Below the pieces are notes generated by a model. That model worked only from the letters and a program-made list of their open reading frames with translations. It had not been told where the DNA came from and searched no databases. Of a DNA stretch of 64,000 bases, positions 8,407-44,443 are shown piece after piece. Each line of letters begins with the position of its first letter. The first letter of the stretch is position 1. The stretch covers positions 37,659 to 101,658 of the forward strand of contig CAYLHJ010000001.1 in assembly GCA_964383705.1 (NCBI GenBank), read 5' to 3'. The stretch is from an uncultured Candidatus Saccharibacteria bacterium. GTDB lineage: Bacteria > Patescibacteriota > Minisyncoccia > Phycocordibacterales > Zambryskibacteraceae. The position numbers and the translations under genes are program-made.

Positions 8407-8469
8407 TCCGGATTTGCTTCTTCCCATTTATTGAAATGGGCGGAATCAAATCTAGATAATGTGCCAAGA

Positions 8470-8497
8470 AAAATCGAGAGCTTGCTCTCGATTTTTC
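8470..8497. terminator. Bidirectional intrinsic terminator hairpin
   Basis: aaaaatcgagagc ttgc tctcgattttt: GC stem flanked by A/T runs between convergent genes. Confidence 0.5.
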
Positions 8498-24779: not shown

Positions 24780-26081
24780 TTATCTGAAGACGGTTGGGGT
24801 GCTATTGTTTTGCTCACCGAGTAGCGCATTGACGAAGCCAAATGTCGCACCATTTTCCATCTGGATTCGTCTTACTTGCTGGAAGAGTTGGATGTAAGCG
24901 ACGTCCTTCTTGGTGGTTGTTTGCGAGATATTGTAGTTGTACGGACTCCCCGCAGGACAACCAAACATCACAGTAAGCCATCCGCAGCTGTGACCAAAGC
25001 CCAGACCATGAATGAGCTCGTGCTGGATGATCGTGGAGTTGCGAAGGGCGAGAGTTCCTATGAGAGAGATCCCCCCAAAGTCGAAATAAAGATCGCCGTC
25101 GACGAGTTGAGCCGCGCCAAAGCCGGTCTTTGATTGACTTGGGTTGATTGTTGCAAGGAATCCTCTATCGGGGGCTAATTCCGTGATCATTGCTGGCCTA
25201 AAGAGATCAATCCCGAAACTTGCCTCCAGATCAGCAACCCCACCATTCCAAAAAGCAGAGGAGTCAGAGGCCGAGATCGAGTCTGGCCAGCTTCTTCGGT
25301 CAAAGGCAAGCGGTATTGGGAAGTCTTTCCAAATTCCACCACTCTGAAGATTGGGGATGAAGAGGAAACTATCCCAAGCCACTTGCGTTTCAGCTATCTG
25401 AATATCAACCTCTATGCCCGAGAACAGTCCAGCTTGGATTACCCATTTCTTGGGTATAGAGACGAAGGTTATCTTGGTAGTCAGGGCTGTTAGCCGAGGA
25501 ATGCTCGCCTCAGATCGATAGTACGAGTTGTTTGGGCTGATGACTACCACATCAAGGAAATTCCCCATCTTGTTTCTTACAGAGATTGGGGCGGAGATGT
25601 GTCCTAGGCCTGAATTGTCAAGCAGAAGGGAATCTCCCCATGAACCAGAGGACATGATTACCTTGAAGCCTGACACATTGTCATAGCCCTGGGGGCTGGC
25701 CCCGTAGACCTGAACCACCAAATTCGGCGGTGGAACAGCCCTCATTGTGGCTGTTGCGGACTTAACTCCTCCGTCACCGGTGCAGGTTACAGAGAAAGTT
25801 GAATCTTTGTTCAAGCTCGAGGTGAAATTGTAACTGCCAGACAGCGATATACTGTCTTTCCAAGAGCTTGTGCAAGACGAGGCGTTTTCAGAAGACCAAG
25901 ACACGGTCTTCAGAGCGGTGTCACCAATTTCAACTGAAGTAGGTGAGATGGAGACACTTACAGATGGCGCTACTGGCGGTGGTGGAGGGGGAGGAGGCGG
26001 GGGCGGTGATGGTCCGGTTCCGTCTTTGCCTGAACATGCAACAATACCAATCGCCAGGATAAGCATTCTGTGATAACGCAT
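24780..26081 (-). CDS. Lipoprotein zinc metalloprotease, metzincin-type (HExxHxxGxxH), with poly-proline linker
   Basis: Lipobox LILAIGIVAC|SG, then a PPPPPPPPPPPPV linker. C-terminal motif QHELIHGLGFGHS. The gene is visibly much GC-richer (about 50-55%) than its flanks. Confidence 0.65.
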   Translation of the reverse strand: MRYHRMLILAIGIVACSGKDGTGPSPPPPPPPPPPPVAPSVSVSISPTSVEIGDTALKTVSWSSENASSCTSSWKDSISLSGSYNFTSSLNKDSTFSVTCTGDGGVKSATATMRAVPPPNLVVQVYGASPQGYDNVSGFKVIMSSGSWGDSLLLDNSGLGHISAPISVRNKMGNFLDVVVISPNNSYYRSEASIPRLTALTTKITFVSIPKKWVIQAGLFSGIEVDIQIAETQVAWDSFLFIPNLQSGGIWKDFPIPLAFDRRSWPDSISASDSSAFWNGGVADLEASFGIDLFRPAMITELAPDRGFLATINPSQSKTGFGAAQLVDGDLYFDFGGISLIGTLALRNSTIIQHELIHGLGFGHSCGWLTVMFGCPAGSPYNYNISQTTTKKDVAYIQLFQQVRRIQMENGATFGFVNALLGEQNNSTPTVFR

Positions 26082-26805: not shown

Positions 26806-28602
26806 ATGTCAACCAATTTTAATTTCATGAGTATTAAAAAATTATTATTTTTTTCGGCCTTTTCTCTCTTTATCTTTTTTGTTGGAACTAATGGTTCTTT
26901 CGCAGCACAAAGCGGTGGTGGTACTCCTGGTGGTTGCGCCATTAACTTCTTTAATCAAGTTTCTGGTGTAACCCCGGGTGGGCAACAATTTGAAGGCAGA
27001 TATCTTCGATGGGATATGACTACTGGTTGCACCTATGCAACTATCACTGTTCCTGGTTCGAATGCTCCAATAAATAATGTAAGCAATATTGGCCAAGCGG
27101 TAATAGGTCTCCCAGGTAATATTTATAATGGGAACTATGTTTTGACGGCTCAAGACAGTTCGGGTAATCAAGTAACAGCAAGCGTATACTATGGAGCCAA
27201 ATCAATCGCAGCTTGTGATATTAGCTCTTGGAATGTTTTCACTGGCCAACCAAACCCTTCAGTTTCCGTTGTTCAGTGGACAGTTTCAGGTTGTGCTGGG
27301 GGATATGATATGTATTTGAATGGTGCCCCCGTATCTGGAGGTTCGGCCAACATGTCTTCTGGGGTTAATACTTTAACTCTTTATCAGAGGTCGGTTGGAC
27401 CATCATTTCTCACTGACACAGTAAGTTTTAATTTTAATCCAACATCTGGTGGTGGCGGTGCTGGTTATGGGAGTATAACAGTTGTACTTTCGGGAATTGC
27501 TGATCCTAGCGGTGTTGATTGGATTGTTGGGCCTGGTGGTTATACAGGAAATGGTAGCGCAAGTACTGTAATTAATATCCCAAATGCGGATATTTCTCCG
27601 ACTACTGGTACAACTTTTGATATATCTGGCCTAACCTATCCGGGTTGTTCTTACGTTGTTACTAATAGTGATGGTGGAGGTTCTTCACTTCTTATGTATC
27701 AATCAAACGATAAAGCTTTTTATGTTGATTATAGTAATTGTGGCGGGTCTTCTCTTACTGTAGATATAAAAGCGGACGGTCTAGACGGTCCAATGTCTAT
27801 TTCCTCAGGGCAATCAGTTAATTTAACTTGGGCTTCAACTGGCGCCACGTCGTGCTCTGGAAGCAATTTTTCAACTGGTGGTGCAACAAACAATATTACA
27901 GGAGTTTCATCTGGCGCACTGACGTCAACGAAAATTTTTCAGGTTGATTGTACAGACGGTGTTTCAACTGTCTCAGATAATGTAAAAGTTCTGGTTGCCT
28001 TCGGTTCATCTTTTGACTATTCATTATCAAATTCAGGTGATGTCTATGTAACCCAAGGTTCAAGTAATGTTCAAGTCCAATCAATTATTGATAAAAATCT
28101 CGTCACTGGTACTTCTCAACCAGTTACTTTATCTGCCTCTGGATTGCCGGCCGGTGTAACTTTGACTTATGCAAATCAAAATTGCTCTCCTACCTGTGCT
28201 TCGACTTTGACTTTTACAATTAGCCCAACCGCCCCAACAGGAACTCATAGCGTAACGATACAAGGTGATGGTGGTGGGGTTGTTAGAACTACATCTTTTG
28301 ATTTGATTATTAGCCCTGCTCCAACAATATCTGTTACCTGTACTCCATCTCCTTCTCCAGCTTCTGTTGGTCAATTGGTTACATGGGATGTAACAGTTTC
28401 TGGTGGAACTGCTCCGTATTCATATGCCTGGTCTGGAACTGATTTTGCTGGAACTCCAGCAACAGATCCGTATACCTTCACTTATCAAACTACGGGAGCA
28501 AAAGTCGCCACAGTTACTGTGACAGACAGTGTCGGAGTACAGGGATCTTGTGCGGCGACAGTTCTTCAGGTTAAGGTAAAACCAACATACGAAGAATTTT
28601 AA
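26806..28602 (+). CDS. Large secreted Gly/Thr/Ser-rich protein with multiple Cys pairs (adhesin-like beta-repeat protein)
   Basis: Sec signal (LFFSAFSLFIFFVGTNGSFA). Low-complexity G/T/S-rich sequence with a recurring Cys-containing repeat pattern. Immediately upstream of pilB. Confidence 0.55.
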   Translation: MSTNFNFMSIKKLLFFSAFSLFIFFVGTNGSFAAQSGGGTPGGCAINFFNQVSGVTPGGQQFEGRYLRWDMTTGCTYATITVPGSNAPINNVSNIGQAVIGLPGNIYNGNYVLTAQDSSGNQVTASVYYGAKSIAACDISSWNVFTGQPNPSVSVVQWTVSGCAGGYDMYLNGAPVSGGSANMSSGVNTLTLYQRSVGPSFLTDTVSFNFNPTSGGGGAGYGSITVVLSGIADPSGVDWIVGPGGYTGNGSASTVINIPNADISPTTGTTFDISGLTYPGCSYVVTNSDGGGSSLLMYQSNDKAFYVDYSNCGGSSLTVDIKADGLDGPMSISSGQSVNLTWASTGATSCSGSNFSTGGATNNITGVSSGALTSTKIFQVDCTDGVSTVSDNVKVLVAFGSSFDYSLSNSGDVYVTQGSSNVQVQSIIDKNLVTGTSQPVTLSASGLPAGVTLTYANQNCSPTCASTLTFTISPTAPTGTHSVTIQGDGGGVVRTTSFDLIISPAPTISVTCTPSPSPASVGQLVTWDVTVSGGTAPYSYAWSGTDFAGTPATDPYTFTYQTTGAKVATVTVTDSVGVQGSCAATVLQVKVKPTYEEF

Positions 28603-28627
28603 GAATATAGAAAATAATTACTAAAAT

Positions 28628-28658
28628 AAAAAATCCTCAATGCTGAGGATTTTTTATT
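28628..28658 (+). terminator. Intrinsic terminator
   Basis: aaaaaatcctca atgc tgaggatttttt. Confidence 0.55.
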
Positions 28659-28692
28659 TTGTCTTTGTTACAATAAAAGTAATAGAATTCTC

Positions 28693-30453
28693 ATGCACAT
28701 TGAAGAAAAACAACTTAAAGAATTCATTCTTGATTCGGGTTTAGTCTCTCGCGCAGATTTAACTAAGGCAGAAAAAGAATCAGCTGAAAGTGGGATTAGT
28801 GTTGGTAAAATTTTAGTTAATAAAGGATCTCTCACGGAAGATGACCTTCGTCGCATGCAAGCCTATATTCTGGGTATCCCATTTGTGGATTTGAAAGGTC
28901 TTAGAATTGATTTTGAAGTACTCTCTCTTATTCCAGAGCCGATTGCAAGAAATAATAATATTATTGCGTTTAGAAAAGTTGGTGACACATTGGAAGTTGC
29001 AATGCTTGATACCGAGGACCTTGCGGCAATTGATTTTATTCGTAAGAAAACCGGATTAAAAATACTCCCGCGCCTTACTGACACAGAATCGGTTAAAAGC
29101 GCTCTTTTGAATTATCAGAAAAGTCTTAAAGCAGAGTTCGGAGACATAATTCAAAAAGAAGCAAATACCCTTAAGTCAATATCTGACAAAGTAGGAGAGG
29201 ATATGGTGTCGGAAAGCGAACTTAAAAAACTCGCAGAAGATGTTCCAGTAGTAAGAATAGTCGACACTTTGTTGAAGCATGCAATTATTCAAAATGCCTC
29301 TGATATTCATATTGAACCAATGGAAAACCAGGTGCTCGTTAGATATCGTATCGACGGGCTTCTTCATGATGCCATGGTTTTACCAAAAAATGTTGCTAAT
29401 GGTATAACTGCTCGAATCAAGGTTCTGTCAAATCTTAAACTAGATGAAAAGAGAATTCCTCAAGATGGTCGCTTTAAGATAGATATGAATGAAGAGAAAG
29501 TTTCATTTCGTATCTCAACTCTTCCTGTCTATTACGGAGAAAAGATTGTGATGAGGCTTCTAAGAGAGGGGGCATCAGGATTTACTCTTGAAGGCCTGGG
29601 TTTCCATGGCGATGGATTAGAAAAACTTCATAAAGCGACACGTCTTACAACTGGAATGATTCTTACTACTGGCCCCACTGGTTCAGGTAAGACTACCACT
29701 CTTTATACAATGCTAGATATTGTAAACCAACCCGATGTTAATATTTCTACGATTGAAGACCCAATTGAGTATCAAATGAAGAGGGTCAATCAAACACAAG
29801 TAAAACCAGAAATTGGTTTTACTTTCGCTACGGGGCTTCGCACTTTAGTTCGACAAGATCCAGATATTATTATGGTTGGAGAAATCCGCGATACCGAGAC
29901 CGCCGCCCTTGCCGTGAATGCTGCATTGACTGGTCATCTTGTCTTATCAACCTTGCATACTAATTCTGCTGCTGGGACAATTGCTCGTCTTATCGATATG
30001 AAGATAGAGCCGTTTCTTCTCACCTCAACCCTTTCTGTGATTGTTGCTCAACGTCTCATTCGACGATTGGCCGATTCAAAGGAAAAATATTTTTTAACTA
30101 AGGAAGAGCTTGGTCAGTTGGAAAAGATTGTTGATCTTGACCTAATCTTAAGAACCCTAAAGGAGGAAAAAATTGTCGATAAAGGAGCGTCGTGGGAGAA
30201 AATGCCAATGTATAAACCAAAGCCCGGAGGAGATACAGAGGATGGATATAGAAGTCGTATTGGTATCCATGAAGTTTTACGTGTTACGCCAGCAATCAAA
30301 GATTTAATTATGAAAAACGCAACAACTCAAGAAGTAGAAGATTGTGCTAAAAAAGAAGGTATGCTCACAATGCTTGAAGACGGCGTCTTTAAGGCTGTAC
30401 AAGGTATTACTACGATTGAAGAGGTGTTGCGTGTGGTCTCATCCGACGAATAA
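28693..30453 (+). CDS. pilB: Type IV pilus assembly ATPase PilB (GspE family)
   Basis: N-terminal GSPII domain; Walker A LTTGPTGSGKTTTLYTML; Asp and His boxes. Confidence 0.9.
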   Translation: MHIEEKQLKEFILDSGLVSRADLTKAEKESAESGISVGKILVNKGSLTEDDLRRMQAYILGIPFVDLKGLRIDFEVLSLIPEPIARNNNIIAFRKVGDTLEVAMLDTEDLAAIDFIRKKTGLKILPRLTDTESVKSALLNYQKSLKAEFGDIIQKEANTLKSISDKVGEDMVSESELKKLAEDVPVVRIVDTLLKHAIIQNASDIHIEPMENQVLVRYRIDGLLHDAMVLPKNVANGITARIKVLSNLKLDEKRIPQDGRFKIDMNEEKVSFRISTLPVYYGEKIVMRLLREGASGFTLEGLGFHGDGLEKLHKATRLTTGMILTTGPTGSGKTTTLYTMLDIVNQPDVNISTIEDPIEYQMKRVNQTQVKPEIGFTFATGLRTLVRQDPDIIMVGEIRDTETAALAVNAALTGHLVLSTLHTNSAAGTIARLIDMKIEPFLLTSTLSVIVAQRLIRRLADSKEKYFLTKEELGQLEKIVDLDLILRTLKEEKIVDKGASWEKMPMYKPKPGGDTEDGYRSRIGIHEVLRVTPAIKDLIMKNATTQEVEDCAKKEGMLTMLEDGVFKAVQGITTIEEVLRVVSSDE

Positions 30454-30454
30454 C

Positions 30455-31672
30455 ATGACAATTTTCAGATATAAAACTTTAAATAAAGAAGGGGTGGTGA
30501 ACGAGGATACAATAGAAGCCCCAGATAGGTTTGCGGTATATCGAAAAATAAAAGAAACTGGGGACAGTGTTATTTATGTAAATGAAGTCCGGAAGCATTC
30601 TTTTTTTTCTTTTGAAAAATTTTCTAATTTTTTCTCTAGAGTAAAGATTCAAGAAAAAATTATATTTGCTAGAAACTTGGCTTCAATGATAGAGGCAGGT
30701 CTCTCTGTTACTCGAGCACTTGCTGTAATGGAAAAGCAGACAAAAAATAAGAAACTCAAAGTAGTTTTGGAGGAATTGAATGACGATATAAGCCGGGGCA
30801 AGAGTCTTTCAGAATCAATGAGAACTAAGAGTGATGTTTTTTCACCACTCTTTATTTCCATGGTTAAGGCGGGAGAAGAGAGTGGAAATCTGGCCGGATC
30901 TTTAAAAGTGGTTTCTATCCAAATGGAGAAAGCTTACACTTTAACAAAGAAGGTCCGTGGGGCGCTCATGTACCCAGCAGTTATCGTAAGCATAATGATT
31001 ATTATCGGGATTCTCATGCTTGTCTTTATGGTTCCAACACTTACAGCAACATTTGAAGGTTTAGGGGTAAAATTACCAGCAAGTACTCGCCTCGTTATCT
31101 CTGTTTCTGATTTTTTGAGGAATAATTATCTTTTGACGATTGTCGGCATAGTTATTTTGGTAATTTCTTTTATTTTTATCTATAGAAGCGCTCCAGGGAA
31201 AAAGTTTTTTAATTTTATTGCAATTCATTTTCCTATATTCGGAAGTATTGTCAGAGAGATTAATGCGGCTCGTACCGCGAGGACCCTTTCTTCTTTATTA
31301 TCTTCTGGTGTGGATATTATATATGCGATAGGAGTCACTCAAGAGGTTCTTCAAAATTTCTATTACAAAGAGGTTTTAGCAAAAGCTCAGAAGAATATTG
31401 AAAAAGGTGAAACAATGTCTCTTGCATTCATAGAGAATGAAAAATTATATCCAATTTTTGTTGGTGAGATGATGAGTGTTGGAGAGGAGACTGGTAAGAT
31501 GGCGGATATGTTGATGGGGGTGGCGACTTTTTATGAAGATGAAGTAGATCAAAAGACGAAAGATATGTCTACATTAATCGAACCTTTTCTTATGGTGATG
31601 ATGGGTCTTGCTGTTGGGTTTTTTGCAATTTCAATGTTGGCTCCTACGTATTCTTTGGTTGATGCGATATAA
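30455..31672 (+). CDS. pilC: Type IV pilus platform protein PilC (GspF family)
   Basis: Two GspF repeats with polytopic TM segments. Start ATG at 30455 directly after the pilB stop (the provided ORF 30344.. is an upstream in-frame extension). Confidence 0.85.
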   Translation: MTIFRYKTLNKEGVVNEDTIEAPDRFAVYRKIKETGDSVIYVNEVRKHSFFSFEKFSNFFSRVKIQEKIIFARNLASMIEAGLSVTRALAVMEKQTKNKKLKVVLEELNDDISRGKSLSESMRTKSDVFSPLFISMVKAGEESGNLAGSLKVVSIQMEKAYTLTKKVRGALMYPAVIVSIMIIIGILMLVFMVPTLTATFEGLGVKLPASTRLVISVSDFLRNNYLLTIVGIVILVISFIFIYRSAPGKKFFNFIAIHFPIFGSIVREINAARTARTLSSLLSSGVDIIYAIGVTQEVLQNFYYKEVLAKAQKNIEKGETMSLAFIENEKLYPIFVGEMMSVGEETGKMADMLMGVATFYEDEVDQKTKDMSTLIEPFLMVMMGLAVGFFAISMLAPTYSLVDAI

Positions 31673-31679
31673 TTCCTGC

Positions 31680-33518
31680 ATGAGGAGAATTTTTGTTTCT
31701 CTTTTTTCACTTTCACGTTCTATAAAAAAACAGGACGGTTTTAGTTTAATAGAAATTATAGTTGGAGCAGCAATTTTTGCTATTATCGCGGTATCTGTCT
31801 ACCAGAGTTACGCTAGTCTCATTGCTCTAGTTTCTGCTTCTCGAGTAAAAATCACAGCAACAGATCTAATTAATGAGCAATTTGAACTTATACGAAACTT
31901 ACCTTATGACAAGGTTGGCATTGCGGGGGGAATTCCTGATGGGGTTTTGGAGAATAGTGAGATTTTTGTTCGCGATAATGGCACTTTTACTATCGTAAGG
32001 ACTGTGCGAAATATCGATGACCCGTTTGACGGCGTTATAGGGGGTTCTCCAAATGATTTATCTCCAGCTGATTACAAATTAGTGGAGATTGAGGTTAATT
32101 GTGATGTATGTAAAAACTTTGTTGAAATGTCGGTGACGAGTCGTGTTTCCCCAAAAAATTTAGAAACTGCATCAACAAATGGTGCGCTTTTTATTCGTGT
32201 TTTTGATGCAAATGGTAATCCAGTCCCGAATGCGAATGTTCACGTCGAAAATAATCTTGCAACTACATCAATCGTTATAGATGACGTCACCGATAACCAA
32301 GGAATGCTTCAGATTGTTGACGCTCCGCCAGGAATAAATGCATATGAAATCACAGTCTCAAAATCAGGGTATACAACTGATGAGACATACACCGCTTCTG
32401 TGGGTAATCCAAATCCAACAAAACCGCATGCGACGGTATTACTTCAGCAAGTAACACAAGTCTCTTTTGTCATAGATAAGGTAAGTACGGTAAATGTTTC
32501 AACTCTTACTGACGATTGTACTGCGGTAGGGAGTATCCCTTTTTCGATGACTGGTGCAAAACTTATTGGTGCTAATCCTGATGTCTATAAATACAGTGCA
32601 AATCATTTGACTAATTCAGGCGGATTAAAAACACTTTCTCAAGTTGAATGGGACACATATAATCTTACGGTAAGTGATCCAACATACCATTTGGCTGGTG
32701 TGAATCCACTTTTACCAGTTTCTATTCTTCCCGATGCTGTACAAGACATACAACTAATTCTTACTACCAAAAACCCATCCCACTTATTAGTAACGGTTAA
32801 AGACAATAGCAACGGCCTCCCACTTTCTGGTGCAGATGTCACTCTTACCAAGACGGGCTATACAGATGTGCTTATAACTGGGCGGGGGTTTTTAAAACAA
32901 AGTGATTGGTCTGGTGGACCGGGTCAAGATGACTTTGTTGATAAAACTCGATATAACAGCTCTGATGGGAATATAGATATAAATAATCCTGTTGGTGAAA
33001 TAAAACTGACAAATATTTTCGGTGACTATGCTCCAAGTGGAGTCCTATCCTCTTCTATATTTGATACTGGGACAACTACGAATTTCAACCAAATTATTTG
33101 GAATCCGGCAAGCCAGCCTCAGGCGACTGGCCCAGACTCGGTCCTTTTCCAATTCGCAAGTGATCCGCTAAATAATGCAAGCACTACATGGGAGTTTCTT
33201 GGTCCAGATGGAACGGGTTTAACTTTTTATACTATTGCTGATACGAACATTAATAGTATTCACAATGGAGACAGATATTTCCGCTACAAGTCTTATCTTG
33301 CGACGGCGAGTTCGACTTTGACGCCAAATATCGCTGAAGTTGCTTTCACCTTTACTTCAGAATGTACTCCGCCAGGTCAGGTCTTATTTTCTGGTCTTTC
33401 TGGCGGGACATATACACTTTCTGTCGATAAGTCGGGGTATGGTAGTTATCAAAATCAAATTATCATCCCTAATGATGTTTCTTTTCTTCAGCATGAGGTG
33501 GATTTAGTTACCCAATAA
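31680..33518 (+). CDS. Giant prepilin-like protein (class III signal, N-terminal methylation motif) of about 612 aa
   Basis: RSIKKQDG|FSLIEIIVGAAIFAIIAVSV matches the prepilin cleavage/methylation consensus (G|FxxxE). A long beta-rich C-terminal domain follows. Confidence 0.7.
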   Translation: MRRIFVSLFSLSRSIKKQDGFSLIEIIVGAAIFAIIAVSVYQSYASLIALVSASRVKITATDLINEQFELIRNLPYDKVGIAGGIPDGVLENSEIFVRDNGTFTIVRTVRNIDDPFDGVIGGSPNDLSPADYKLVEIEVNCDVCKNFVEMSVTSRVSPKNLETASTNGALFIRVFDANGNPVPNANVHVENNLATTSIVIDDVTDNQGMLQIVDAPPGINAYEITVSKSGYTTDETYTASVGNPNPTKPHATVLLQQVTQVSFVIDKVSTVNVSTLTDDCTAVGSIPFSMTGAKLIGANPDVYKYSANHLTNSGGLKTLSQVEWDTYNLTVSDPTYHLAGVNPLLPVSILPDAVQDIQLILTTKNPSHLLVTVKDNSNGLPLSGADVTLTKTGYTDVLITGRGFLKQSDWSGGPGQDDFVDKTRYNSSDGNIDINNPVGEIKLTNIFGDYAPSGVLSSSIFDTGTTTNFNQIIWNPASQPQATGPDSVLFQFASDPLNNASTTWEFLGPDGTGLTFYTIADTNINSIHNGDRYFRYKSYLATASSTLTPNIAEVAFTFTSECTPPGQVLFSGLSGGTYTLSVDKSGYGSYQNQIIIPNDVSFLQHEVDLVTQ

Positions 33519-33519
33519 G

Positions 33520-34155
33520 ATGAATCTAGAAAAAAATAAATTTGAAAAGGAATCAGCTAATTACGGTTTTAGCATTCTGGAAATGCTTGTTAGCGTCGCT
33601 ATTATTAGTCTAATTGGTTTGGCAGTTGCCAACTTTCAGAAAGATATTTTTTCTTTAAATACTCATTTACAAGATAGTCTAAGCGCTCAGCTAGATGCCA
33701 GAAAAGTTCTTCGAAGTTTTATTGCTGAAGTTCGAAGTGCTTCGCCGTCAAGTCTGGGTGGATATGCGATTGAGTCTGCGGGGACATCATCAATTACTTT
33801 CTACAGTAATATAGATAATGATTTATACAAAGAGCGTTTAAGATATTTTTTGCAGGGGAGCGATCTTAAACGTGGAGTGATAAAGCCTGGTGGAAATCCA
33901 CTGGTATACAATCCATCAGATGAGGAATTTGATATTATTGCTCGTGATGTAGTAAACGGTACAAATACTCCGATATTTGATTATTTTGATAAAAATTTTT
34001 ATGGAACGACTACACCACTTACAAGTCCTGTTGATCCGATTCTTGTTAGATTAATTCGCATGACTCTCGTAATTGATCGTGACCCAAATAAAAGTCCGGA
34101 GCCAATCAACGTCTCTTCGCAAGGGACACTTCGTAATTTGAAAGATAATTTATGA
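33520..34155 (+). CDS. Prepilin-type pseudopilin
   Basis: ANYG|FSILEMLVSVAIISLIGLAV. Confidence 0.7.
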   Translation: MNLEKNKFEKESANYGFSILEMLVSVAIISLIGLAVANFQKDIFSLNTHLQDSLSAQLDARKVLRSFIAEVRSASPSSLGGYAIESAGTSSITFYSNIDNDLYKERLRYFLQGSDLKRGVIKPGGNPLVYNPSDEEFDIIARDVVNGTNTPIFDYFDKNFYGTTTPLTSPVDPILVRLIRMTLVIDRDPNKSPEPINVSSQGTLRNLKDNL

Positions 34156-35624
34156 GAATAAAATCTGGTCAAAGTGGGCAAATACTTCTTCAAGTAATTG
34201 TCTTCTCAACAATCGCAGCTCTTCTCATCGGCGGTCTTATTGGTTGGTCTGGTGTAAATATAAAAGCATCCAGACAGTCAGCTGATAGGGAGAGAGCGAT
34301 TCAGCTGGCGGAAGCAGGAATCGATTACTACCGGTGGCATTTGGCACATGCTCCGACTGATTATCAGGATGGAACTGGTGGCCCAGGGCCATACATTCAC
34401 TCTGTTCCTGATAAAAATGGAGACATAATTGGGGAATTTAGTTTAAGTATCACCCCCCCAATTGTTGGTTCAACGAAAGTTCAGGTTGAATCAACGGGTA
34501 TTCCAATAAGTAACCCCGCAATAAGTAGGACGATTAGAGTTGAAATGGCCATTCCTTCTCTGGCCAAATATGCTGTAGTAGCAAATGATAATATGCGTTT
34601 TGGTGCTGGGACAGAAGTTTTTGGTCCAATTCATTCAAATGGGGGGATACGTTTTGATGGTTTAGCACATAATGTTATCACTAGCGCACTTTCTTCATAT
34701 GATGATCCTGATCATACGGGAAATGTTGAATTTGCCGTTCATACTCACGTTAACCCCCCACCAGGTTCAGGTGTTAATGACACTTTTCGCCCGCTCGAAG
34801 CGCCGCCAAGTGCGGTCTCATCTCGTCCGGATATTTTTTTGGTTGGCAGACAATTCCCAGTCCCAGCCGCTGATTTTACAGGATTAACAAATGATCTTTC
34901 GCAAATCAAAGCGAACGCTCAATCGGATGGAAGATATTTTGCATCTTCAGGTGCTCAAGGATATCAAATTCTTCTAAAGACGGATGACACTTTTGATATT
35001 TATAGAGTTGATTCCCAAATTTCAGCTCCATCAAATTGTACAAACGTAGCAAACCAGACTGGATGGGGCACATGGAGCGTAAATGGAAGAACGCTTATTG
35101 GTAATTATCAAATACCGAGCAATGGTTTAATTTTTATTGAAGATAATGTTTGGGTAGAAGGCCAAATAGATGGAGCGCGTGTGACTATTGCGGCAGGGAG
35201 GTTTCCTGACAATCCATCTACAAGGCCAAACATCATAGTAAACAACGATCTTCTTTATACGAACTTTGATGGGAGTGATGTAATAGCTTTAATATCTCAA
35301 GGTCACATACATGTGGGTATGGTTTCGCTCACTAATTTACGTATTGATGCCGCATTGGTTGCTCAAAATGGCAGAGTTGGCAGATTCTACTATCGCCCAC
35401 CGGGAAGTGGTCAAAATAGGTGTTCTCCATACCACACAAGAACAAGCCTTACTTTATATGGAATGATTGCAACCAATGTTCGTTATGGTTTTGCTTATAC
35501 TGATGGCAATGGTTATGGTATAAGGAATATTAACTACGATGCTAACCTTCTTTATGGCCCACCGCCAAGCTTTCCCCTAACATCAGACCAGTACGAAGTC
35601 TTATCTTGGGAAGAGGTTCATTAG
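34152..35624 (+). CDS. PilX/GspK-like minor pilin-associated protein (N-terminal pilin-like helix lacking Glu5)
   Basis: SGQSGQILLQVIVFSTIAALLIGGL hydrophobic N-terminus. Overlaps the upstream gene by 4 nt. Confidence 0.5.
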   Translation: MRIKSGQSGQILLQVIVFSTIAALLIGGLIGWSGVNIKASRQSADRERAIQLAEAGIDYYRWHLAHAPTDYQDGTGGPGPYIHSVPDKNGDIIGEFSLSITPPIVGSTKVQVESTGIPISNPAISRTIRVEMAIPSLAKYAVVANDNMRFGAGTEVFGPIHSNGGIRFDGLAHNVITSALSSYDDPDHTGNVEFAVHTHVNPPPGSGVNDTFRPLEAPPSAVSSRPDIFLVGRQFPVPAADFTGLTNDLSQIKANAQSDGRYFASSGAQGYQILLKTDDTFDIYRVDSQISAPSNCTNVANQTGWGTWSVNGRTLIGNYQIPSNGLIFIEDNVWVEGQIDGARVTIAAGRFPDNPSTRPNIIVNNDLLYTNFDGSDVIALISQGHIHVGMVSLTNLRIDAALVAQNGRVGRFYYRPPGSGQNRCSPYHTRTSLTLYGMIATNVRYGFAYTDGNGYGIRNINYDANLLYGPPPSFPLTSDQYEVLSWEEVH

Positions 35625-35643: not shown

Positions 35644-36408
35644 ATGGTGAAAAAGTTTGTTATTGCGAATTGGAAGATGAATCCAGAGACTACTGCCGAA
35701 TCAAGGAAATTATTTCAGGATGTGGCAAAGGTTGCGTCAACTCTTAAAAAGATAAATGTCATTATCTCGCCTCCCGCAATATTTCTTTCTGATTTATTAA
35801 GAAAACAGAAAAAAAATGTTTTCCTCTGTTCGCAAGATTTATTTTGGGGTAGAACAGGGCCATTCACTGGACAATTTAGTGCTTCAATGCTTCGAGCATT
35901 AGGTGTTAAATCAAGTATTATTGGCCACTCGGAGAAAAGAGTATTAGGTGAAACTGATGCGATTGTTTCAAAGAAAGTTATTGCCGCTCTCAAAGAATCT
36001 TTAACCCCAATTATTTGTATTGGTGAACGTGAACGAGACCGTGGGGGAGAATATCTAAAATTTCTTGCAGATCAGTTAAAAACATCAATTTCCGGAGTTT
36101 CAAGGAAAGATGTTTCTAAAATTATTATTGCTTACGAACCGATTTGGGCTATTGGCAAGACTGCATCTGATGCGATGAATGCGCACAAACTCCATGAGGT
36201 GGTAATTTTTATTCGCAAGGTCCTAACAACAGTTTTCGGTAGAGAGTTTGCTCAAAAAGTAACTATTATTTATGGTGGATCAGTAGAGCCAAAAAATGCT
36301 TCAGATTTAATAAAAAATGGAAATGTCTCAGGTTTTCTAGTTGGTCATGCAAGCCTCGATTCAAAGAAATTTAAGGAAATATTACTTGCTGTTGAAGCTT
36401 CAAAATGA
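35644..36408 (+). CDS. tpiA: Triosephosphate isomerase
   Basis: FVIANWKMN...IGHSEKR...ICIGE...AYEPIWAIG. Confidence 0.9.
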   Translation: MVKKFVIANWKMNPETTAESRKLFQDVAKVASTLKKINVIISPPAIFLSDLLRKQKKNVFLCSQDLFWGRTGPFTGQFSASMLRALGVKSSIIGHSEKRVLGETDAIVSKKVIAALKESLTPIICIGERERDRGGEYLKFLADQLKTSISGVSRKDVSKIIIAYEPIWAIGKTASDAMNAHKLHEVVIFIRKVLTTVFGREFAQKVTIIYGGSVEPKNASDLIKNGNVSGFLVGHASLDSKKFKEILLAVEASK

Positions 36409-37523
36409 AAAGTGTAAGAGATATAGGGAATATAGAAGGCAAAACCATCTTTCTTCGGGCTGATTTCAATGTACCAGTAAAAGACTCTGTTATTACGGAT
36501 GATTTTCGTATTAAAAAAACACTGCCTCTTATAGATTTTATTCAAAAAAATGGCGGTAGATTGGTTATTGGTAGTCATTTTGAAGGTGAGGGTGGCAGTT
36601 TAAAGCCGGTTTTTGAATATTTAAAGAAAGATTATCAAATTGTTTTTTTAGAGGATTTTTATCCTGAGGGGCTCTCTGTTATAAAAGAGGCTCTTGATAG
36701 TGGAAATATTGTATTACTTGATAATTTAAGAAAGTATAAAGAAGAAAAAGAAAATAGTGATGAGTATGCAAAACATCTTTCAAGTTTTGCCGATTTTTTT
36801 GTAAACGAAGCTTTTTCTTCCGCCCACCGAAGACATGCCTCTGTTATTGGAATACCAAAATATATTCCAGGTTTTTCAGGTTTTGTTTTTGAAGAAGAAA
36901 TTAAGGAACTTTCTCGCGTTTTAAAACCAACTCACCCTTTTTTATTTATTCTTGGTGGCGCAAAGTTTGAAACGAAACTCCCACTTGTAAGAAAAATATT
37001 TAATATTGCCGATTACGTGTTTATTGGAGGCGCTCTCGCAAATGATTTTATAAAAGCTCAAGGCTTAAGTGTTGGTTCATCACTTTTATCATCTGATGGT
37101 GCTGATGTTAGAGATTTTTTAACCCCTAAACTTATTCTACCGTCAGATGTTTTAGTAAGAGACGAATCAGGGGCGATAACAAAAAAGAAAATTACGGATA
37201 TTAACATTACTGATTATATTGTCGATGTTGGTCCAGAAACCATGGAGCGTGTTGATTCGTGTATCCAATCAGTAAAGAGTATTCTTTGGAACGGTCCACT
37301 AGGGAATTATGAACTTGGTTTCAAGGAAGCGACTCTATCTTTGGCAAAGAGTATTGCGGGAAGTGATACTGTGTCTGTTGTTGGAGGGGGAGATACTATT
37401 GCATCAATAGCCGAACTTAATCTTTCAGATAAATTTACTTTTATTTCTACAGGAGGCGGGGCAATGCTAGATTTTCTCGCAAATGAAACTCTGCCTGGTA
37501 TAGAGGCATTAAATCAACATTAA
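36405..37523 (+). CDS. pgk: Phosphoglycerate kinase
   Basis: IFLRADFNVPVKD...VIGSHFEGE...GGGA C-terminal motif. Confidence 0.85.
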   Translation: MKSVRDIGNIEGKTIFLRADFNVPVKDSVITDDFRIKKTLPLIDFIQKNGGRLVIGSHFEGEGGSLKPVFEYLKKDYQIVFLEDFYPEGLSVIKEALDSGNIVLLDNLRKYKEEKENSDEYAKHLSSFADFFVNEAFSSAHRRHASVIGIPKYIPGFSGFVFEEEIKELSRVLKPTHPFLFILGGAKFETKLPLVRKIFNIADYVFIGGALANDFIKAQGLSVGSSLLSSDGADVRDFLTPKLILPSDVLVRDESGAITKKKITDINITDYIVDVGPETMERVDSCIQSVKSILWNGPLGNYELGFKEATLSLAKSIAGSDTVSVVGGGDTIASIAELNLSDKFTFISTGGGAMLDFLANETLPGIEALNQH

Positions 37524-39996: not shown

Positions 39997-40716
39997 GTGA
40001 AATCAATTTCTATATTTACTGATGGCGCTTCAAGAGGAAACCCAGGTCCTGGCGGGTGGGGGGCAATCATTGTTCTTACAGAAACTGTAAAAGAGTTGGG
40101 AGGAGGAGAAAAAAGAACAACAAATAACCGAATGGAACTTACGGCGGTTATTGAAGCGCTAGCATTTTTGTCCAAATTAAAAATTAAAGAAAAAGAATTG
40201 GTCGTTAATGTTTTTACTGATTCAAGTTATGTCTTAAAAGGGGCAATGTCCTGGGTATATGGGTGGGAGAGAAATGGGTGGAAGACAAAACAAAAAGACG
40301 AAGTTTTAAATAAAGATCTTTGGGTGAAATTATTGAAACTGATTTCTATTTCTAAAATTAACTGGCAACTTCTTCCAGGGCATTCTGGGATACCAGGAAA
40401 TGAGCGTTGCGACATTATTGCTACCACTTTTGCTGATGGTTTAAAAATACAACTTTATTCTGGAAACAAGAGTGGTTATAAAATTGATGTTTCTTCGGTT
40501 ATTCAAACAAAGGCAAAAAAAAGAAAATCTTCTAAATCAAAAGTAAAACCATATTCATATGTGAGTAGTGTAAATGGGGCGGTAAAAACACATAGAACTT
40601 GGGCAGAATGTGAATCAAGAACAAAAGGGAAAAGTGGTGCGCTCTTTAAAAAATCCTTCTCTAAGGAAGATGAAAAAGCAATAATAGCTTTATGGAAAAG
40701 AGCATCTCATTTTTAA
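39997..40716 (+). CDS. rnhA: Ribonuclease HI with C-terminal hybrid-binding (Cauli_VI-like) domain
   Basis: RNase H fold ISIFTDGASRGNPGPGGWGAII...MELTAVIEAL...VFTDSSYV. C-terminal PYSYVSSVNGAVKTHRTWAECESRTKGKSGALFKKSFSKEDEKA resembles the HBD consensus. Confidence 0.8.
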   Translation: MKSISIFTDGASRGNPGPGGWGAIIVLTETVKELGGGEKRTTNNRMELTAVIEALAFLSKLKIKEKELVVNVFTDSSYVLKGAMSWVYGWERNGWKTKQKDEVLNKDLWVKLLKLISISKINWQLLPGHSGIPGNERCDIIATTFADGLKIQLYSGNKSGYKIDVSSVIQTKAKKRKSSKSKVKPYSYVSSVNGAVKTHRTWAECESRTKGKSGALFKKSFSKEDEKAIIALWKRASHF

Positions 40717-42194
40717 ATCGTAATCGTATCCCTTTTTTAATTTCAGGTTTTATTTTTGGTGTTTTAATCTCTTCATTTATTAGTATTGGGCAGAGGGTTG
40801 GCTACGGGTTATTTTTTGTCCATCTTTTTATCTTAGTTTTCTTGTTTTTTGCAAGAAATGTTTCTGTTAATCAACCGATTGCTGTTGTTTTATTGTTTCT
40901 CATGACCTTTTCTATGGGGATTATTCGTTTTGCAAAATATAATGAGGTGAATCTCGATCCAATTTTCGAATCTGCTGTTGGTAAAGAAATCACCCTTCAG
41001 TCTATTGTCTTAAAAGAACCAGAAGAAAAAGTTTCTTACAGACAATACATTGTTAAGGCACCAAAAGGCGATGCCAAGGTTCTTGTTAGGGGGGAAATTT
41101 ATCCAGTATTTAATTACGGAGATGAAGTTAAATTTACAGGAAGATTAGAAAAACCAAAAAACTTCGAAACTGATCAAGGAAAAGATTTTGATTACACTTC
41201 TTATTTAAAGAAAGACAAAGTTTATTACATTATTTCCTTTGCTAAAGGGGAGCTTGTTTCAGAAGGTAGTGGTAATTGGTTTAGAGAAAAACTTTTTACT
41301 CTAAAAAATAATTTTGTTAAGAATATAAATAATTTAATACCAGACCCTGAATCTTCTTTACTTGCGGGTATTTTACTTGGGTTAGAAGACTCTCTTGGGA
41401 ATGATTTAGAGGATGCTTTTATAAAAACTGGTGTAGTGCATATTGTTGTTTTGTCTGGTTACAACATTACTATCGTTGCTGAATCGCTTATAAAGTTTTT
41501 TTCTTTTGTTCCTAAGAATTTTGCTTTGGCAGGTGGTGCTTTTGGTATTATTTTATTTTCCCTAATGGTTGGCGGGTCTCCATCTGTAGTGCGCGCATCA
41601 CTTATGGCGATTCTTGTTCTTTTGGCGCGTGGTACAGGGCGAAAATATGATATTGGTCGAGCTTTGCTTATTGTTGGATTTGTAATGATTTTTTTGAATC
41701 CAAATATTCTTATCTTTGATATATCATTTCAACTCTCGTTTCTTTCTACCATCGCGCTTATTTGGATTTCTCCCATTATTAAAAATAAATTTAAAATAAT
41801 TCCAGAGCGTTTTGCTATTAGAGAAATTTTTTCTGCTACACTTGCCACTCAGTTTTTCGTCTTGCCACTACTTCTTTATAAGATGGGAGAATTTTCTTTA
41901 GTCGGACTTCCGGTAAATTTACTCATTCTTGGTTTTATCCCCGCGATTATGTTTTTTGGTTTTGTCGCGGGGTCAATAGGATTTGTTTCTTTATTAATCG
42001 CTACACCTTTTGCATTTCTCTCATACTTACTACTTGCTTATATATTAAAAATCGTTGATATTTTTTCAGCATTTTCTTTTGCTTCATTTCATATACCACA
42101 TTTTTCTCTTTCACTTATGATTGTATTTTATCTTTCTTATGGGTATTTATTTTTTAGATATTTTAAAAATAGAAAAGGCGCGTTACAAGAGTAA
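40692..42194 (+). CDS. comEC: ComEC/Rec2 competence channel, N-terminal (DUF4131 plus competence domain) part
   Basis: Polytopic membrane protein with GGSPSVVRASLMAILVLLARGTGRKYD competence-domain signature. Confidence 0.8.
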   Translation: MEKSISFLNRNRIPFLISGFIFGVLISSFISIGQRVGYGLFFVHLFILVFLFFARNVSVNQPIAVVLLFLMTFSMGIIRFAKYNEVNLDPIFESAVGKEITLQSIVLKEPEEKVSYRQYIVKAPKGDAKVLVRGEIYPVFNYGDEVKFTGRLEKPKNFETDQGKDFDYTSYLKKDKVYYIISFAKGELVSEGSGNWFREKLFTLKNNFVKNINNLIPDPESSLLAGILLGLEDSLGNDLEDAFIKTGVVHIVVLSGYNITIVAESLIKFFSFVPKNFALAGGAFGIILFSLMVGGSPSVVRASLMAILVLLARGTGRKYDIGRALLIVGFVMIFLNPNILIFDISFQLSFLSTIALIWISPIIKNKFKIIPERFAIREIFSATLATQFFVLPLLLYKMGEFSLVGLPVNLLILGFIPAIMFFGFVAGSIGFVSLLIATPFAFLSYLLLAYILKIVDIFSAFSFASFHIPHFSLSLMIVFYLSYGYLFFRYFKNRKGALQE

Positions 42195-42542: not shown

Positions 42543-43226
42543 CTAGATGAGCCCCTTGTATAAGAAGAACAGTCGAGTCAGAAATTCATATGGATATGCG
42601 GTGATTGCCCATCGCCAACGCTTCTGACTGAACTTGTGTTCGAATTTCATCTTCGGGAGATCTGGTGGAATGATAACCTCGAGGCCAAGGCGCTCATAAA
42701 TCCACCGAGCTCGCCATGCGTGTGGGTAAGTGGCAATTAGAATTACTCTTGACCAACCCATCTCATCGCACAACTCCTTTTGAAGTCTGGCCACGCCATC
42801 ACTGCCACTATATTTACTAGAGAAGATACTTGTGTTGCTATCGAACGGGGTATTTCCCAGAATGTGGATGCCTCGTTGCTTGATGATTCTTCCAACCTCG
42901 GCTTGAGGAAAGATGGGGATACCAAGCATTTTGTGATAATGCTGGGCGCAATCAGCAAGCCCCATGTTTGATTTACTGGGCAACCCACCTTCCAAATCAG
43001 ACGCGGCTTGAGTAACAATTAGCTGGGCGTCTTGTAGACGTCCTTCTCCGGGCGGTTTTCTCCAATTGAAGATACATTGGAATAGGCGGAAAAGAGTTGA
43101 ACTGGGCTCCTTGCGGAGTCTAGCCAAGAAACCGAACATCGATCTCTCCTCGATAGGAATTCTGCGTACCTTACAACGGGCAATATTTCCAGAAGTTATA
43201 TAATCATAACTACAGCCACATGTCAA
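42543..43226 (-). CDS. DUF218 (YdcF/ElyC-like) domain protein, higher GC
   Basis: GWSRVILIATYPHAWRARWIYERLGLEVI resembles the DUF218 core. GC about 50%. Confidence 0.5.
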   Translation of the reverse strand: MTCGCSYDYITSGNIARCKVRRIPIEERSMFGFLARLRKEPSSTLFRLFQCIFNWRKPPGEGRLQDAQLIVTQAASDLEGGLPSKSNMGLADCAQHYHKMLGIPIFPQAEVGRIIKQRGIHILGNTPFDSNTSIFSSKYSGSDGVARLQKELCDEMGWSRVILIATYPHAWRARWIYERLGLEVIIPPDLPKMKFEHKFSQKRWRWAITAYPYEFLTRLFFLYKGLI

Positions 43227-43250: not shown

Positions 43251-43844
43251 TTATAGTGCTTTTTTAAAATTTTCTTCAATTACATTCCAATTAAGGTTTG
43301 CAAAAAAATCTTCAATGTAATTTTTCTTTCCGCTTGGTTGGTAATCTGCTACGAATGCATGCTCCCACATATCAATACCTAATACCCATGGAAGGCCGGT
43401 TAAATGTCCTAAGTGCTGTTCGTCTACCCATTGAGTGAGTAATCTTTTTGTAAGAGGGTCATAGTAAAGGACTGCCCATCCTACTCCGCGAGTAAGGGCG
43501 ATGGCCTTAAAAATGTTTAAAAATCCATCAAAGGAACTCCATTCTTCCTCAATCGCCTTTTTTAGAAGTGAATCACTACTTATTAAAGATGCGCCACCTT
43601 CTAAACTTTTGAAATAGTATTCGTGGTTTCGCATACCATCAAATTCGAATGCAAATCTTCTTTGAAGTTCTCCTAAAGCATAGGCATTTTTCTCACTATC
43701 TTTTCTGTATTCTTCAATTGTTTCAAGAATAGTATTCGCGTTCTTTACATAGCCCGAATAAAGCTTTAAATGTTCCTCAATATTCTTTGTCGTTATTCCC
43801 TTAAGTTCTGGGATAGTAAATTTTTGTTCTTCAAATTTTTTCAT
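43251..43844 (-). CDS. sodA: Fe/Mn superoxide dismutase
   Basis: HHxKHH-type N-terminus, DMWEHAF and QWVDEQH motifs. Host-like low GC. Confidence 0.85.
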   Translation of the reverse strand: MKKFEEQKFTIPELKGITTKNIEEHLKLYSGYVKNANTILETIEEYRKDSEKNAYALGELQRRFAFEFDGMRNHEYYFKSLEGGASLISSDSLLKKAIEEEWSSFDGFLNIFKAIALTRGVGWAVLYYDPLTKRLLTQWVDEQHLGHLTGLPWVLGIDMWEHAFVADYQPSGKKNYIEDFFANLNWNVIEENFKKAL

Positions 43845-43933: not shown

Positions 43934-44389
43934 ATGCCTGGCGTAATGAATTCCAAGCCACATATTCAAGATCTTATTGGCCAAGATCTCTCTGGCTTCA
44001 AGCTTGCAATTGGGTTCACCGCTCGTCTCAAACGAGGCCATGTGGGGTACTTCCCGCTAGTTTACAATAGGTTAAGAAGAACTGTGCGACAGGACATTTC
44101 CTCTTACCAGGACATCGTAGTCACCTTAGAGAAATCAACAATAGCCAAAGTGGCTAATCTTCTTGAATATCGACCCCATGAGATCGAGAGGGTGGTTGTC
44201 TTGGTCAACGAATCTCAAGAACTTGGGTTCTTTATTGAGGGTGTAAACATTTCAACCGTCATTCGATACTCAGACGCCTTACCTGCTTGTATTTCCGGAC
44301 AGCTCTTTCATCTTCTTACTGAAGATCGGTTAACTGTCCTGGCCCGACAAAGTGAAGAACCTTTCAAGTGGGCATACGGTCTTCTGTAA
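43934..44389 (+). CDS. Hypothetical protein, higher GC
   Basis: GGAGG RBS 5 nt upstream of the ATG. About 50% GC, no recognisable domain. Confidence 0.45.
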   Translation: MPGVMNSKPHIQDLIGQDLSGFKLAIGFTARLKRGHVGYFPLVYNRLRRTVRQDISSYQDIVVTLEKSTIAKVANLLEYRPHEIERVVVLVNESQELGFFIEGVNISTVIRYSDALPACISGQLFHLLTEDRLTVLARQSEEPFKWAYGLL

Positions 44390-44396
44390 AAGATGC

Positions 44397-44430
44397 TCTG
44401 CCGCGCGCCACATGGCGCGCGGCTTCTTTT
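44397..44430 (+). terminator. Intrinsic terminator (near-perfect GC palindrome)
   Basis: ctgccgcgcgcca catg gcgcgcggcttctttt. Confidence 0.55.
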
Positions 44431-44443
44431 ATATAATAAATAT

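Follow-up and report, generated by a model that had tools for sequence, protein, structure and literature searches.

Type IV pili (T4P) are thought to be central to host attachment and DNA uptake in bacteria that belong to the candidate phyla radiation (CPR), and the largest class of these bacteria, the Paceibacteria or Parcubacteria, has to our knowledge no cultured, genetically tractable member. Among the systems closest to the one described here, GspI, GspJ and GspK form a tip trimer that is capped by GspK, which lacks the glutamate at position 5 of the mature pilin (Glu5) since nothing sits above it. In the monoderm S. sanguinis, the minor pilins PilA-B-C form a three-pilin tip complex with two bulky modular subunits that is needed for assembly (PMC9934059), and it has been proposed as the primer of assembly and as the pilus cap (PMC9934059; PMC8179133). 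Modular type IV pilins have been catalogued more widely, and PF13620 is among the modules of their commonest architectures, whose representatives include CPR proteins (Raynaud et al. 2021). In Thermus thermophilus, the pilin ComZ binds DNA and is required for competence, not for piliation (PMC6561018); it bears a beta-solenoid and, like cyanobacterial PilX, has been proposed as a tip receptor or plug. In cyanobacteria, PilX is one of the core minor pilins, has a pilin fold interrupted by an ice-binding-like beta-solenoid, and is proposed to be a tip plug where no PilY1 exists (Schuergers et al. 2026 preprint). The subject of this text is the type IV pilus operon of an ultra-small CPR bacterium of the class Paceibacteria, found in a stretch of 64,000 nucleotides of contig CAYLHJ010000001.1 (the window). 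In this operon, the genes of the assembly ATPase PilB and the platform protein PilC are followed by a cassette of three genes that encode pilin-like proteins of 612, 211 and 490 aa. T4P in CPR bacteria, modular pilins, monoderm three-pilin tip complexes and solenoid pilins of the ComZ/PilX type have all been described, and the cassette is no new kind of machine; the cassette as such, its class-wide conservation in Paceibacteria and an assignment for the 490 aa family were not found in the literature searched.

The three proteins are best understood as a complex of minor pilins, similar to GspI/J/K (or to S. sanguinis PilABC), that serves the pilus as both primer and cap, a reading to which a probability of about 0.65 is assigned. 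By analogy, the cassette appears to follow the known logic of tip complexes, with two Glu5 pilins, one pilin without Glu5, and the K-like gene in last place, which we take to be the order of I-J-K and V-W-X as well. Like the GspI-GspJ-GspK tip (PDB 3ci0) and PilV-PilW-PilX, the cassette consists of three consecutive pilin-like genes. It differs from these sets in that an H-type (GspH/FimU) gene is absent, the first subunit has 612 aa and a beta-sandwich stalk compared with about 120 aa in GspIJK, and the K-like subunit bears a beta-solenoid where GspK has an alpha domain. With PilABC of S. sanguinis, the cassette shares a composition of three minor pilins, two of them bulky and modular and one without Glu5. 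The grafted modules are different (vWA and lectin domains in S. sanguinis; a transthyretin/CnaB stalk and a beta-solenoid in the cassette), and the subunit without Glu5 is the small one in S. sanguinis and a large one in the cassette. Furthermore, the cassette pilins are far more conserved, and the locus contains no major pilin gene.

The 490 aa protein has no match to a family model in Pfam or NCBIfam, including PilX_N (PF14341) and T2SS_GspK. Its N-terminus was assessed in an alignment of 48 family members, in which Gly9 (position -1) is invariant and followed by a hydrophobic helix, and the residue at +5 is Gln, Pro, His or Asn in all 48 and never Glu. These results uphold the claim of an earlier note on this DNA that the third prepilin-like protein lacks Glu5 and is PilX/GspK-like. 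One distant family member, annotated as a PilX N-terminal domain protein, passes the PilX_N model (28.3; cut-off 25.5), and 5 of the 48 match T2SS_GspK weakly (best E 0.0016). The family has at least 4,174 homologues; among the 120 listed, none carries a Pfam domain, and those with a name are all called 'hypothetical protein'. When the family profile was searched against 1.84 billion cluster representatives (50% identity), 1,348 clusters were retrieved at E<=0.001 and 355 at E<=1e-30, and the few named clusters are Patescibacteria. Sequence and profile searches of the PDB with the 490, 612 and 211 aa families gave N-terminal helix matches to pilins, or nothing.

The predicted model of the 490 aa protein (predicted local distance difference test score, pLDDT, 68) contains a helix (residues 8-66), a four-strand pilin sheet (81-133) and a confident beta-solenoid (about 245-445). 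The predicted pilin module is structurally similar to GspK/PilX, the solenoid joined to it is ice-binding-protein-like, and the pattern of fold matches is the one that the authors of the ComZ study gave for ComZ itself. On the strength of this model, the 490 aa protein may be described as a pilin similar to GspK that bears a beta-solenoid in the manner of ComZ, the tip pilin of Thermus. Two strands follow the solenoid (454-461 and 482-489; pLDDT about 48-70), and the C-terminal segment 446-490 is very conserved. Between the pilin sheet and the solenoid, residues 137-241 are highly conserved (top-residue frequency 0.80) and His/Asp-rich, and contain the motifs GPIHSNxGIRFDG, DDPDH and VHTH. Closer comparison with ComZ (PDB 6qvi; partner PilA2) reveals that both proteins have a GspK-resembling N-terminal pilin module and a large triangular beta-solenoid of the ice-binding-protein type, that both lack the canonical prepilin signature, and that both are encoded among minor-pilin genes. 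No sequence similarity between the two was detectable in the PDB profile search, and the solenoid is shorter in the 490 aa protein (about 200 residues versus about 380). Unlike ComZ, the 490 aa protein has the additional 105-residue conserved His/Asp-rich segment and is acidic overall, and its host is a monoderm-like CPR organism without a secretin. The comparable cyanobacterial PilX comes from a different phylum and belongs to a core set of four members.

The first protein of the cassette is a modular prepilin. Residues 1-20 of the 612 aa protein form the leader, which ends in KKQDG and is followed by FSLIEIIVGAAIF; cleavage is predicted between Gly20 and Phe21, and Glu5 is present. The protein scores 27.8 bits with the Pfam model N_methyl (PF07963; cut-off 21.2) and 23.5 with TIGR02532 (cut-off 16.3). 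Its Pfam architecture, N_methyl + CarboxypepD_reg (PF13620; E 1.9e-15 for the latter), is a pilin module followed by a domain not specific to pilus biology, which defines a modular pilin, and is exactly one that Raynaud et al. (2021) list. That study is a catalogue; what goes beyond it here are at least three more beta-sandwich regions missed by Pfam, the three-gene cassette and the class-wide conservation. In the AlphaFold2 model (pLDDT 79; predicted template modelling score 0.60), an alpha1 helix (23-73) and a small beta head (about 93-156) provide the long N-terminal helix and the sheet of a pilin fold, and beta-sandwich domains occupy residues of about 166-612, the first of which is CarboxypepD_reg/transthyretin-like. 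A Foldseek search of the PDB with this model matched stalks of Gram-positive sortase pili and adhesins (TIE protein, PitA, SpaA, BcpA; E down to 6e-11), with low template modelling scores that reflect the multi-domain geometry, and no catalytic fold was among the matches. Thus, the 612 aa protein is modelled as a small pilin module bearing a stalk of transthyretin/CnaB-like beta-sandwiches. The earlier note had singled it out as an unusually large prepilin that might be a tip adhesin or a pilus-presented enzyme; it is a real modular prepilin, plausibly displayed at the tip, and the enzyme proposal is not supported by folds that are of the transthyretin/CnaB type only. The suspicion that the open reading frame (ORF) is a two-gene fusion or frameshift artefact can be dismissed, as at least 1,930 homologues exist, the best 120 of which span 574-651 aa at 56-96% identity, and conservation is even over the full length.

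The 211 aa protein is a small prepilin whose leader ends in ANYG and is followed by FSILEMLV, with predicted cleavage between Gly16 and Phe17 and with Glu5 present. Its scores exceed the cut-offs of N_methyl (22.0; cut-off 21.2) and TIGR02532 (20.6; cut-off 16.3), so that both it and the 612 aa protein fit prepilin-motif models, and N_methyl is matched by 21 of 21 aligned orthologues. Among the listed orthologue N-termini that begin upstream of the motif, all read G-x-[ST]-x-x-E, and the C-terminus RNLKDNL is conserved. The protein is probably the J- or I-like partner in the tip complex. Taken together, the N-termini of all three pilin-like proteins had been described correctly in the earlier note.

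An additional observation concerns the two large pilins, in both of which the least confidently modelled segments (114-130 of the 612 aa protein and 137-241 of the 490 aa protein), with pLDDT below 50, are among the most conserved and are Asp- or His-rich. In the 612 aa protein, the segment reads RNIDDPFDG..PNDLSPADY and has a top-residue frequency of 0.91. Such segments may mark a metal site or an interface between subunits, which would fold only in the complex or around a metal ion.

The conservation of the cassette was probed by tblastn of the window proteins in 82 related loci. All 82 loci have the 612 and 211 aa genes, the latter directly after the former, and 80 have the 490 aa gene; since the loci were picked by the 612 aa gene, only the presence of the 211 aa gene is an independent result. 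Both loci without the 490 aa gene are cut by contig ends. Neighbouring genes are found less often (pilC 69, pilB 63, tpiA 56, pgk 50, nusA 28), many absences being due to contig ends, and the cassette is seated directly after pilB-pilC in 63-69 of the 82. On one contig of 406 kb, the trio stands alone, away from pilB-pilC, and 7 kb from it lie a pilM homologue, two genes of which one faintly matches the PilO family, a gene for 103 aa and another pilB. That the trio is kept together away from pilB-pilC, near another pil cluster, indicates that it is a unit and that these genomes hold further T4P loci. The median identities to the window across loci are 71% for PilB, 63% for the 490 aa protein, 55% for the 612 aa protein, 54% for PilC, 48% for the 211 aa protein (the least conserved of the trio), 46% for Pgk and 43% for TpiA. 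The 612 and 490 aa proteins therefore exceed the adjacent glycolytic enzymes in conservation, which is unusual for surface pilins and indicates that the trio is under unusually strong purifying selection. Conservation is even over all domains, which are 44-71% identical, with no hypervariable segment. When one genome from each GTDB species was scanned, at least 476 genomes were found to encode a relative of the 612 aa protein, with record names that include Zambryski-, Kaiser-, Taylor-, Giovannoni-, Sungi-, Portnoy- and Campbellbacteria and Paceibacterota. Consequently, the large pilin is not lineage-specific, as had been considered, and belongs to a strongly conserved, class-wide family.

The conserved order of the genes, their prepilin signatures, the fold predictions and the nearest structural relatives lead us to infer that the three proteins belong to one complex and that this complex sits at the tip, and to consider what it may bind. 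A minor-pilin complex would start filament assembly on the PilC platform and would end as the pilus tip. The 490 aa protein, with its ComZ-like beta-solenoid, would be the capping subunit, and its lack of Glu5 would be explained because no subunit sits above it. The 211 and 612 aa prepilins, which have Glu5, would dock under it via their N-terminal helices, and the transthyretin/CnaB-like stalk of the 612 aa protein would project from the tip. PilB would power extension, and the prepilin peptidase, any retraction ATPase, PilM/N/O and the bulk (major) pilin would be encoded elsewhere. A quasi-helical heteromer at the tip is suggested by the strict co-occurrence of the genes and by how tightly they are packed. 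That every domain is so highly conserved speaks for a class-wide ligand or mechanical role rather than for a host-specific receptor. This class-wide set of three proteins would most likely be the business end of the Paceibacteria pilus, for which structural assignments can be offered: a modular pilin with an immunoglobulin-like (Ig-like) stalk, a small partner and a ComZ/GspK-like solenoid cap. The family of the 490 aa protein, whose listed members are without Pfam domains, can be assigned a predicted structure and a putative function, and the strong conservation makes the trio good targets for expression, binding assays, and antibody or cryo-electron tomography labelling in enrichment cultures.

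Several results weigh against this assignment. Four subunits (H, I, J and K) make up the canonical core set, and the cassette has only three pilin-like genes, in the window as in the 82 loci, so that the cassette resembles GspIJK or S. sanguinis PilABC rather than the H-I-J-K set. In the 490 aa model, the 105 conserved residues 137-241 have pLDDT values below 50, and the globular domain of the 211 aa protein receives no assignment from sequence searches. The I/J identity of the 612 and 211 aa proteins is affected as well, because the weak NCBIfam matches to GspI and GspJ cover the N-terminal helix only; these labels were dropped. A small major pilin is absent within 10 kb in 79 of the 82 related loci and in the window, and a separate filament body is therefore assumed. 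The assembly proteins do not separate T4P from machines that resemble the type II secretion system (T2SS) or the Com system. PilB matches the Pfam models T2SSE (E 1.5e-121) and MshEN (E 3.9e-14), and scores 538 bits with TIGR02538 (PilB), which is under the equivalog cut-off of 676 bits; PilC matches T2SSF in two stretches (E 2.1e-53). The scores of both are high, yet they lie under every equivalog cut-off (PilB, GspE and ComGA; GspF, PilC and ComGB), the best-scoring model for PilC is GspF, and the GspE score of PilB nearly equals its PilB score. Consequently, the flavour of type IV filament is not told by sequence.

The absence of a major pilin extends to other parts of the machinery. When the translations of the 64 kb window were read by eye and scanned for motifs, none of pilD, pilT, pilM/N/O and a short pilin came to light, as the earlier note had reported for the locus, and in a six-frame regular-expression scan of the whole window the canonical GFxxxE motif stands at the ORF start of the 612 and 211 aa proteins only. 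A complete type IVa set (PilD, PilT, PilM/N/O and a major pilin beside PilB and PilC) is thus not found in the window, and the missing components are probably encoded elsewhere, given the relative in which pilM, a weak match to the PilO family and another pilB lie 7 kb from the trio. Other prepilins of real size lie near the trio in just 3 of the 82 loci, a number that is a lower bound because a strict class of residues was required at position 5 in the locus-wide scan. In one of these, locus L039 (Parcubacteria GW2011_GWA2_47_26), three small prepilins of 131-173 aa (mature) are encoded at 7292-9000, between pilB-pilC and the trio, and the pilB-pilC pair is divergent (44% and 39% identity). 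These prepilins may show how the missing major and H-type pilins look in this class.

The alternatives differ mainly in the ligand of the trio and in the completeness of the filament. In the view of the earlier note, the C-terminal domains of the 612 aa protein bind the host surface and set the host range. This is a possible but distinctly less favored explanation. Pilins with grafted modules are adhesins in S. sanguinis (PMC8179133), PilX1 and PilX2, two large minor pilins of Saccharibacteria, are adhesin candidates (PMC11623550), PF13620 has been described as a carbohydrate-binding-like fold in modular pilins, and the 612 aa protein is related in fold to Gram-positive pilus adhesins and stalks. 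The matched domains are nevertheless typical spacer or stalk modules and not known lectins, and no domain of the protein is hypervariable across many Paceibacteria candidate phyla, in contrast to receptor-binding proteins. Saccharibacteria pilins, on the other hand, are barely conserved across Patescibacteria, sharing just 10-25% coverage with those of other members (PMC11623550). The strong class-wide conservation of the 612 aa protein therefore argues against a host-specific adhesin; if the ligand were a conserved part of the host envelope, for example peptidoglycan, attachment could overlap with the tip complex proposed above. It has also been considered that the pilus serves DNA uptake, with the trio as a tip receptor like Thermus ComZ/PilA2 that captures DNA from the environment and hands it over to ComEC, to be imported and scavenged for nucleotides. 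In architecture, the 490 aa protein agrees with ComZ, itself DNA-binding and essential for competence (PMC6561018), and T4P and competence families are reported to be enriched in CPR bacteria (PMC6744442). The genes recJ, rnhA and a comEC split in two lie 2-9 kb downstream of the cassette in conserved order (recJ in 45 loci, comEC_N in 35), and a universal ligand such as DNA would account for pilins that outdo glycolytic enzymes in conservation. We consider a DNA receptor unlikely, as the mature proteins are acidic or neutral (median pI 4.5 for the 612 aa protein, with a net charge of about -21; 6.8 for the 211 aa protein; 5.4 for the 490 aa protein and 6.7 for its solenoid), and electrostatic support for DNA binding was not found. 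Moreover, the linkage to comEC may just be frozen gene order, given that the same block holds tig, ppa, nusA, tpiA, pgk and HIT, and likeness to the ComZ fold carries no ligand specificity, since cyanobacterial PilX solenoids also occur in motility pili.

A further proposal dispenses with the separate filament body assumed for the tip complex. Here the trio would be the sole subunits, with the 211 aa protein repeating, and would form a short structure like a pseudopilus, used as a piston or an envelope-spanning device, rather than a long pilus. The scarcity of other prepilin-like ORFs within 10 kb and in the window, the best match of PilC to GspF, the nearly equal GspE and PilB scores of PilB, and the integrity of the cassette even when parted from pilB-pilC would all fit such a device. 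Major pilin genes are often unlinked from minor-pilin operons, however, and L039 has three small pilins before its trio; the separate putative pilM-N-O-pilB cluster near the trio of another relative indicates further T4P loci. In addition, the putative repeating subunit is the least conserved of the three, and no promoter-like site above 9 of 12 precedes its gene. The proposal therefore appears improbable. The same holds for an extended form of it, in which the trio is the whole extracellular part of a Paceibacteria-wide housekeeping nanomachine, the ComZ-like cap and the Ig-like stalk capture DNA or a universal substrate for the split ComEC, and residues 114-130 of the 612 aa protein and 137-241 of the 490 aa protein form a shared metal-dependent site at the interface. 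Such a nanomachine, a long shot in our judgement, would supply nucleotides that these organisms cannot make, and would explain both the conservation of the pilins above glycolytic enzymes and the lack of a linked major pilin.

The tip complex is embedded in a compact operon (Table 1). All ORFs lie where the earlier note had placed them, and its identification of a T4P locus of a CPR bacterium is supported, the named homologues being from Zambryskibacteria, Parcubacteria or Paceibacterota. The true start of pilC is the ATG at 30455 rather than the listed 30344, because the NCBIfam GspF/PilC alignments begin at residue 38 of the listed ORF, and it lies one base past the pilB stop. Likewise, the start of the 612 aa pilin is placed at the ATG at 31680 by family alignments. 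The intergenic distances are 1 nt (pilB/pilC), 7 nt (pilC/612 aa gene) and 1 nt (612/211 aa genes), and the 211 and 490 aa genes overlap by 4 nt (ATGA). No terminator-like site with a stem of at least 8 pairs was found on the + strand within the operon; two weak candidates with 5- and 7-pair stems both lie inside the 612 aa gene. The genes from pilB to the 490 aa gene thus form one operon, and the terminator-like hairpin before pilB is the upstream limit of the pilus transcription unit. The scan found no terminator-like site between the last pilin gene and tpiA-pgk, so that these glycolytic genes may share a transcript with the pilus genes.

Table 1. Features of the pilus operon and its surroundings (positions in the window)
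Feature	Position	Strand	Basis or remark
598 aa secreted protein	26806-28602	+	ORF list
Terminator-like hairpin	28622-28661	readable on both strands	18-pair stem, T run after the stem on either strand
Promoter-like site	28659-28688		Directly before pilB
pilB, PilB/GspE-type assembly ATPase, 586 aa, N-terminal MshEN domain	28693-30453	+	Pfam
pilC, PilC/GspF-type platform protein	30455-31672	+	Pfam T2SSF, family alignments
612 aa modular prepilin	31680-33518	+	Pfam N_methyl, TIGR02532; listed ORF runs 31608-33518
211 aa prepilin	33520-34155	+	Pfam N_methyl, TIGR02532
490 aa putative GspK/PilX/ComZ-type minor pilin without Glu5	34152-35624	+	Alignment, predicted fold
tpiA	35644-36408	+	ORF list
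pgk	36405-37523	+	ORF list
Split comEC, membrane part	40692-42194	+	Window ORFs
ORF between the comEC parts	42543-43226	-	Window ORFs
sodA, between the comEC parts	43251-43844	-	Window ORFs
ORF between the comEC parts	43934-44389	+	Window ORFs
Split comEC, metallo-beta-lactamase part	44393-45301	+	Window ORFs

The operon lies in a larger conserved block (21417-45301) with the order tig, ppa, nusA, a variable slot, pilB, pilC, the 612, 211 and 490 aa genes, tpiA, pgk, HIT, recJ, rnhA, comEC (membrane part), sodA (opposite strand) and comEC (metallo-beta-lactamase part). ComEC seems to be encoded in two pieces, one for the membrane/competence part and one for the metallo-beta-lactamase part, and the latter has its own N-terminal hydrophobic segment. 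The order of comEC_N, sodA on the opposite strand and the metallo-beta-lactamase part recurs in at least 12 related loci, suggesting that the split is ancestral in the clade and not an assembly error. Many contigs with the cassette bear the title 'uncultured Candidatus Saccharibacteria bacterium', and one is labelled 'uncultured Gammaproteobacteria'. These titles are probably generic or wrong, because the contigs show synteny with, and 50-87% identity to, named Zambryskibacteria and Parcubacteria.

The variable slot between nusA and pilB is occupied in the window by the gene of the 598 aa protein, which the earlier note had described as a Cys/Gly/Thr-rich secreted repeat protein. A signal-like hydrophobic N-terminal segment, a Ser+Gly+Thr content of 38.6% and 12 Cys residues that can be read as six pairs agree with part of this description; Cys makes up only 2% of residues, and no sequence repeats were found by self-BLAST or by Tandem Repeats Finder on the DNA. 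Pfam shows weak matches to PKD and BiPBP_C, and at the C-terminus lies a module resembling the Ig-like phage decoration protein 5lxk (E 3.7e-4), suggesting that the protein is a string of Ig-like modules. Its position directly upstream on the same strand, its secreted appearance and the superficial likeness of the predicted Ig-like modules and paired Cys to Pam pilins, a newly described group of Sec-dependent, Ig-like pilins in other CPR classes (10.64898/2026.03.03.709456), would be in keeping with a pilus-associated or surface-layer adhesin that works with the pilus locus. Such a link is very improbable. The terminator-like hairpin and a promoter-like site separate the gene from pilB, and the flanking ORFs, judged by eye, are unlike a chaperone-type partner. 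Matches were found in 11 of the 82 loci, where they cover only residues of about 390-598, the C-terminal third. Among relatives, nusA and pilB are 171 nt to 6.4 kb apart, and in 15 of 28 loci this distance is below 700 nt, leaving no room there for the gene. In a search of 5.8 billion proteins, the single full-length homologue (92% identity) was on the contig of a near-identical strain, and all other matches cover at most 48% of the protein, many of them from non-CPR bacteria. These findings speak against the proposed link and indicate that the 598 aa protein is an unrelated strain-specific, fast-evolving mosaic surface protein in a variable slot, and not part of the pilus system.

Other putative surface proteins are encoded in the window. 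A cluster of further secreted or membrane-anchored proteins is located at 393-1940 (-), 1925-2881 (-), 2979-4043 (+) and 4052-4432 (+), and the 515 aa protein of this cluster ends in PKD-like modules with the motif YSWSGTDG. The 598 aa protein has a very similar motif, YAWSGTDF, which suggests that Ig-like modules have been shuffled among the surface proteins of this organism. At 24780-26081 (-), a putative lipoprotein of 433 aa has a run of 13 prolines after a lipobox-like Cys and a metzincin-like HELIHGLGFGH motif. Its gene sits in a 2 kb stretch of 46% GC, compared with about 36-41% in most of the window, and weak relatives (26-28% identity) are found in 4 of the 82 loci. This lipoprotein may be a horizontally acquired secreted metalloprotease.

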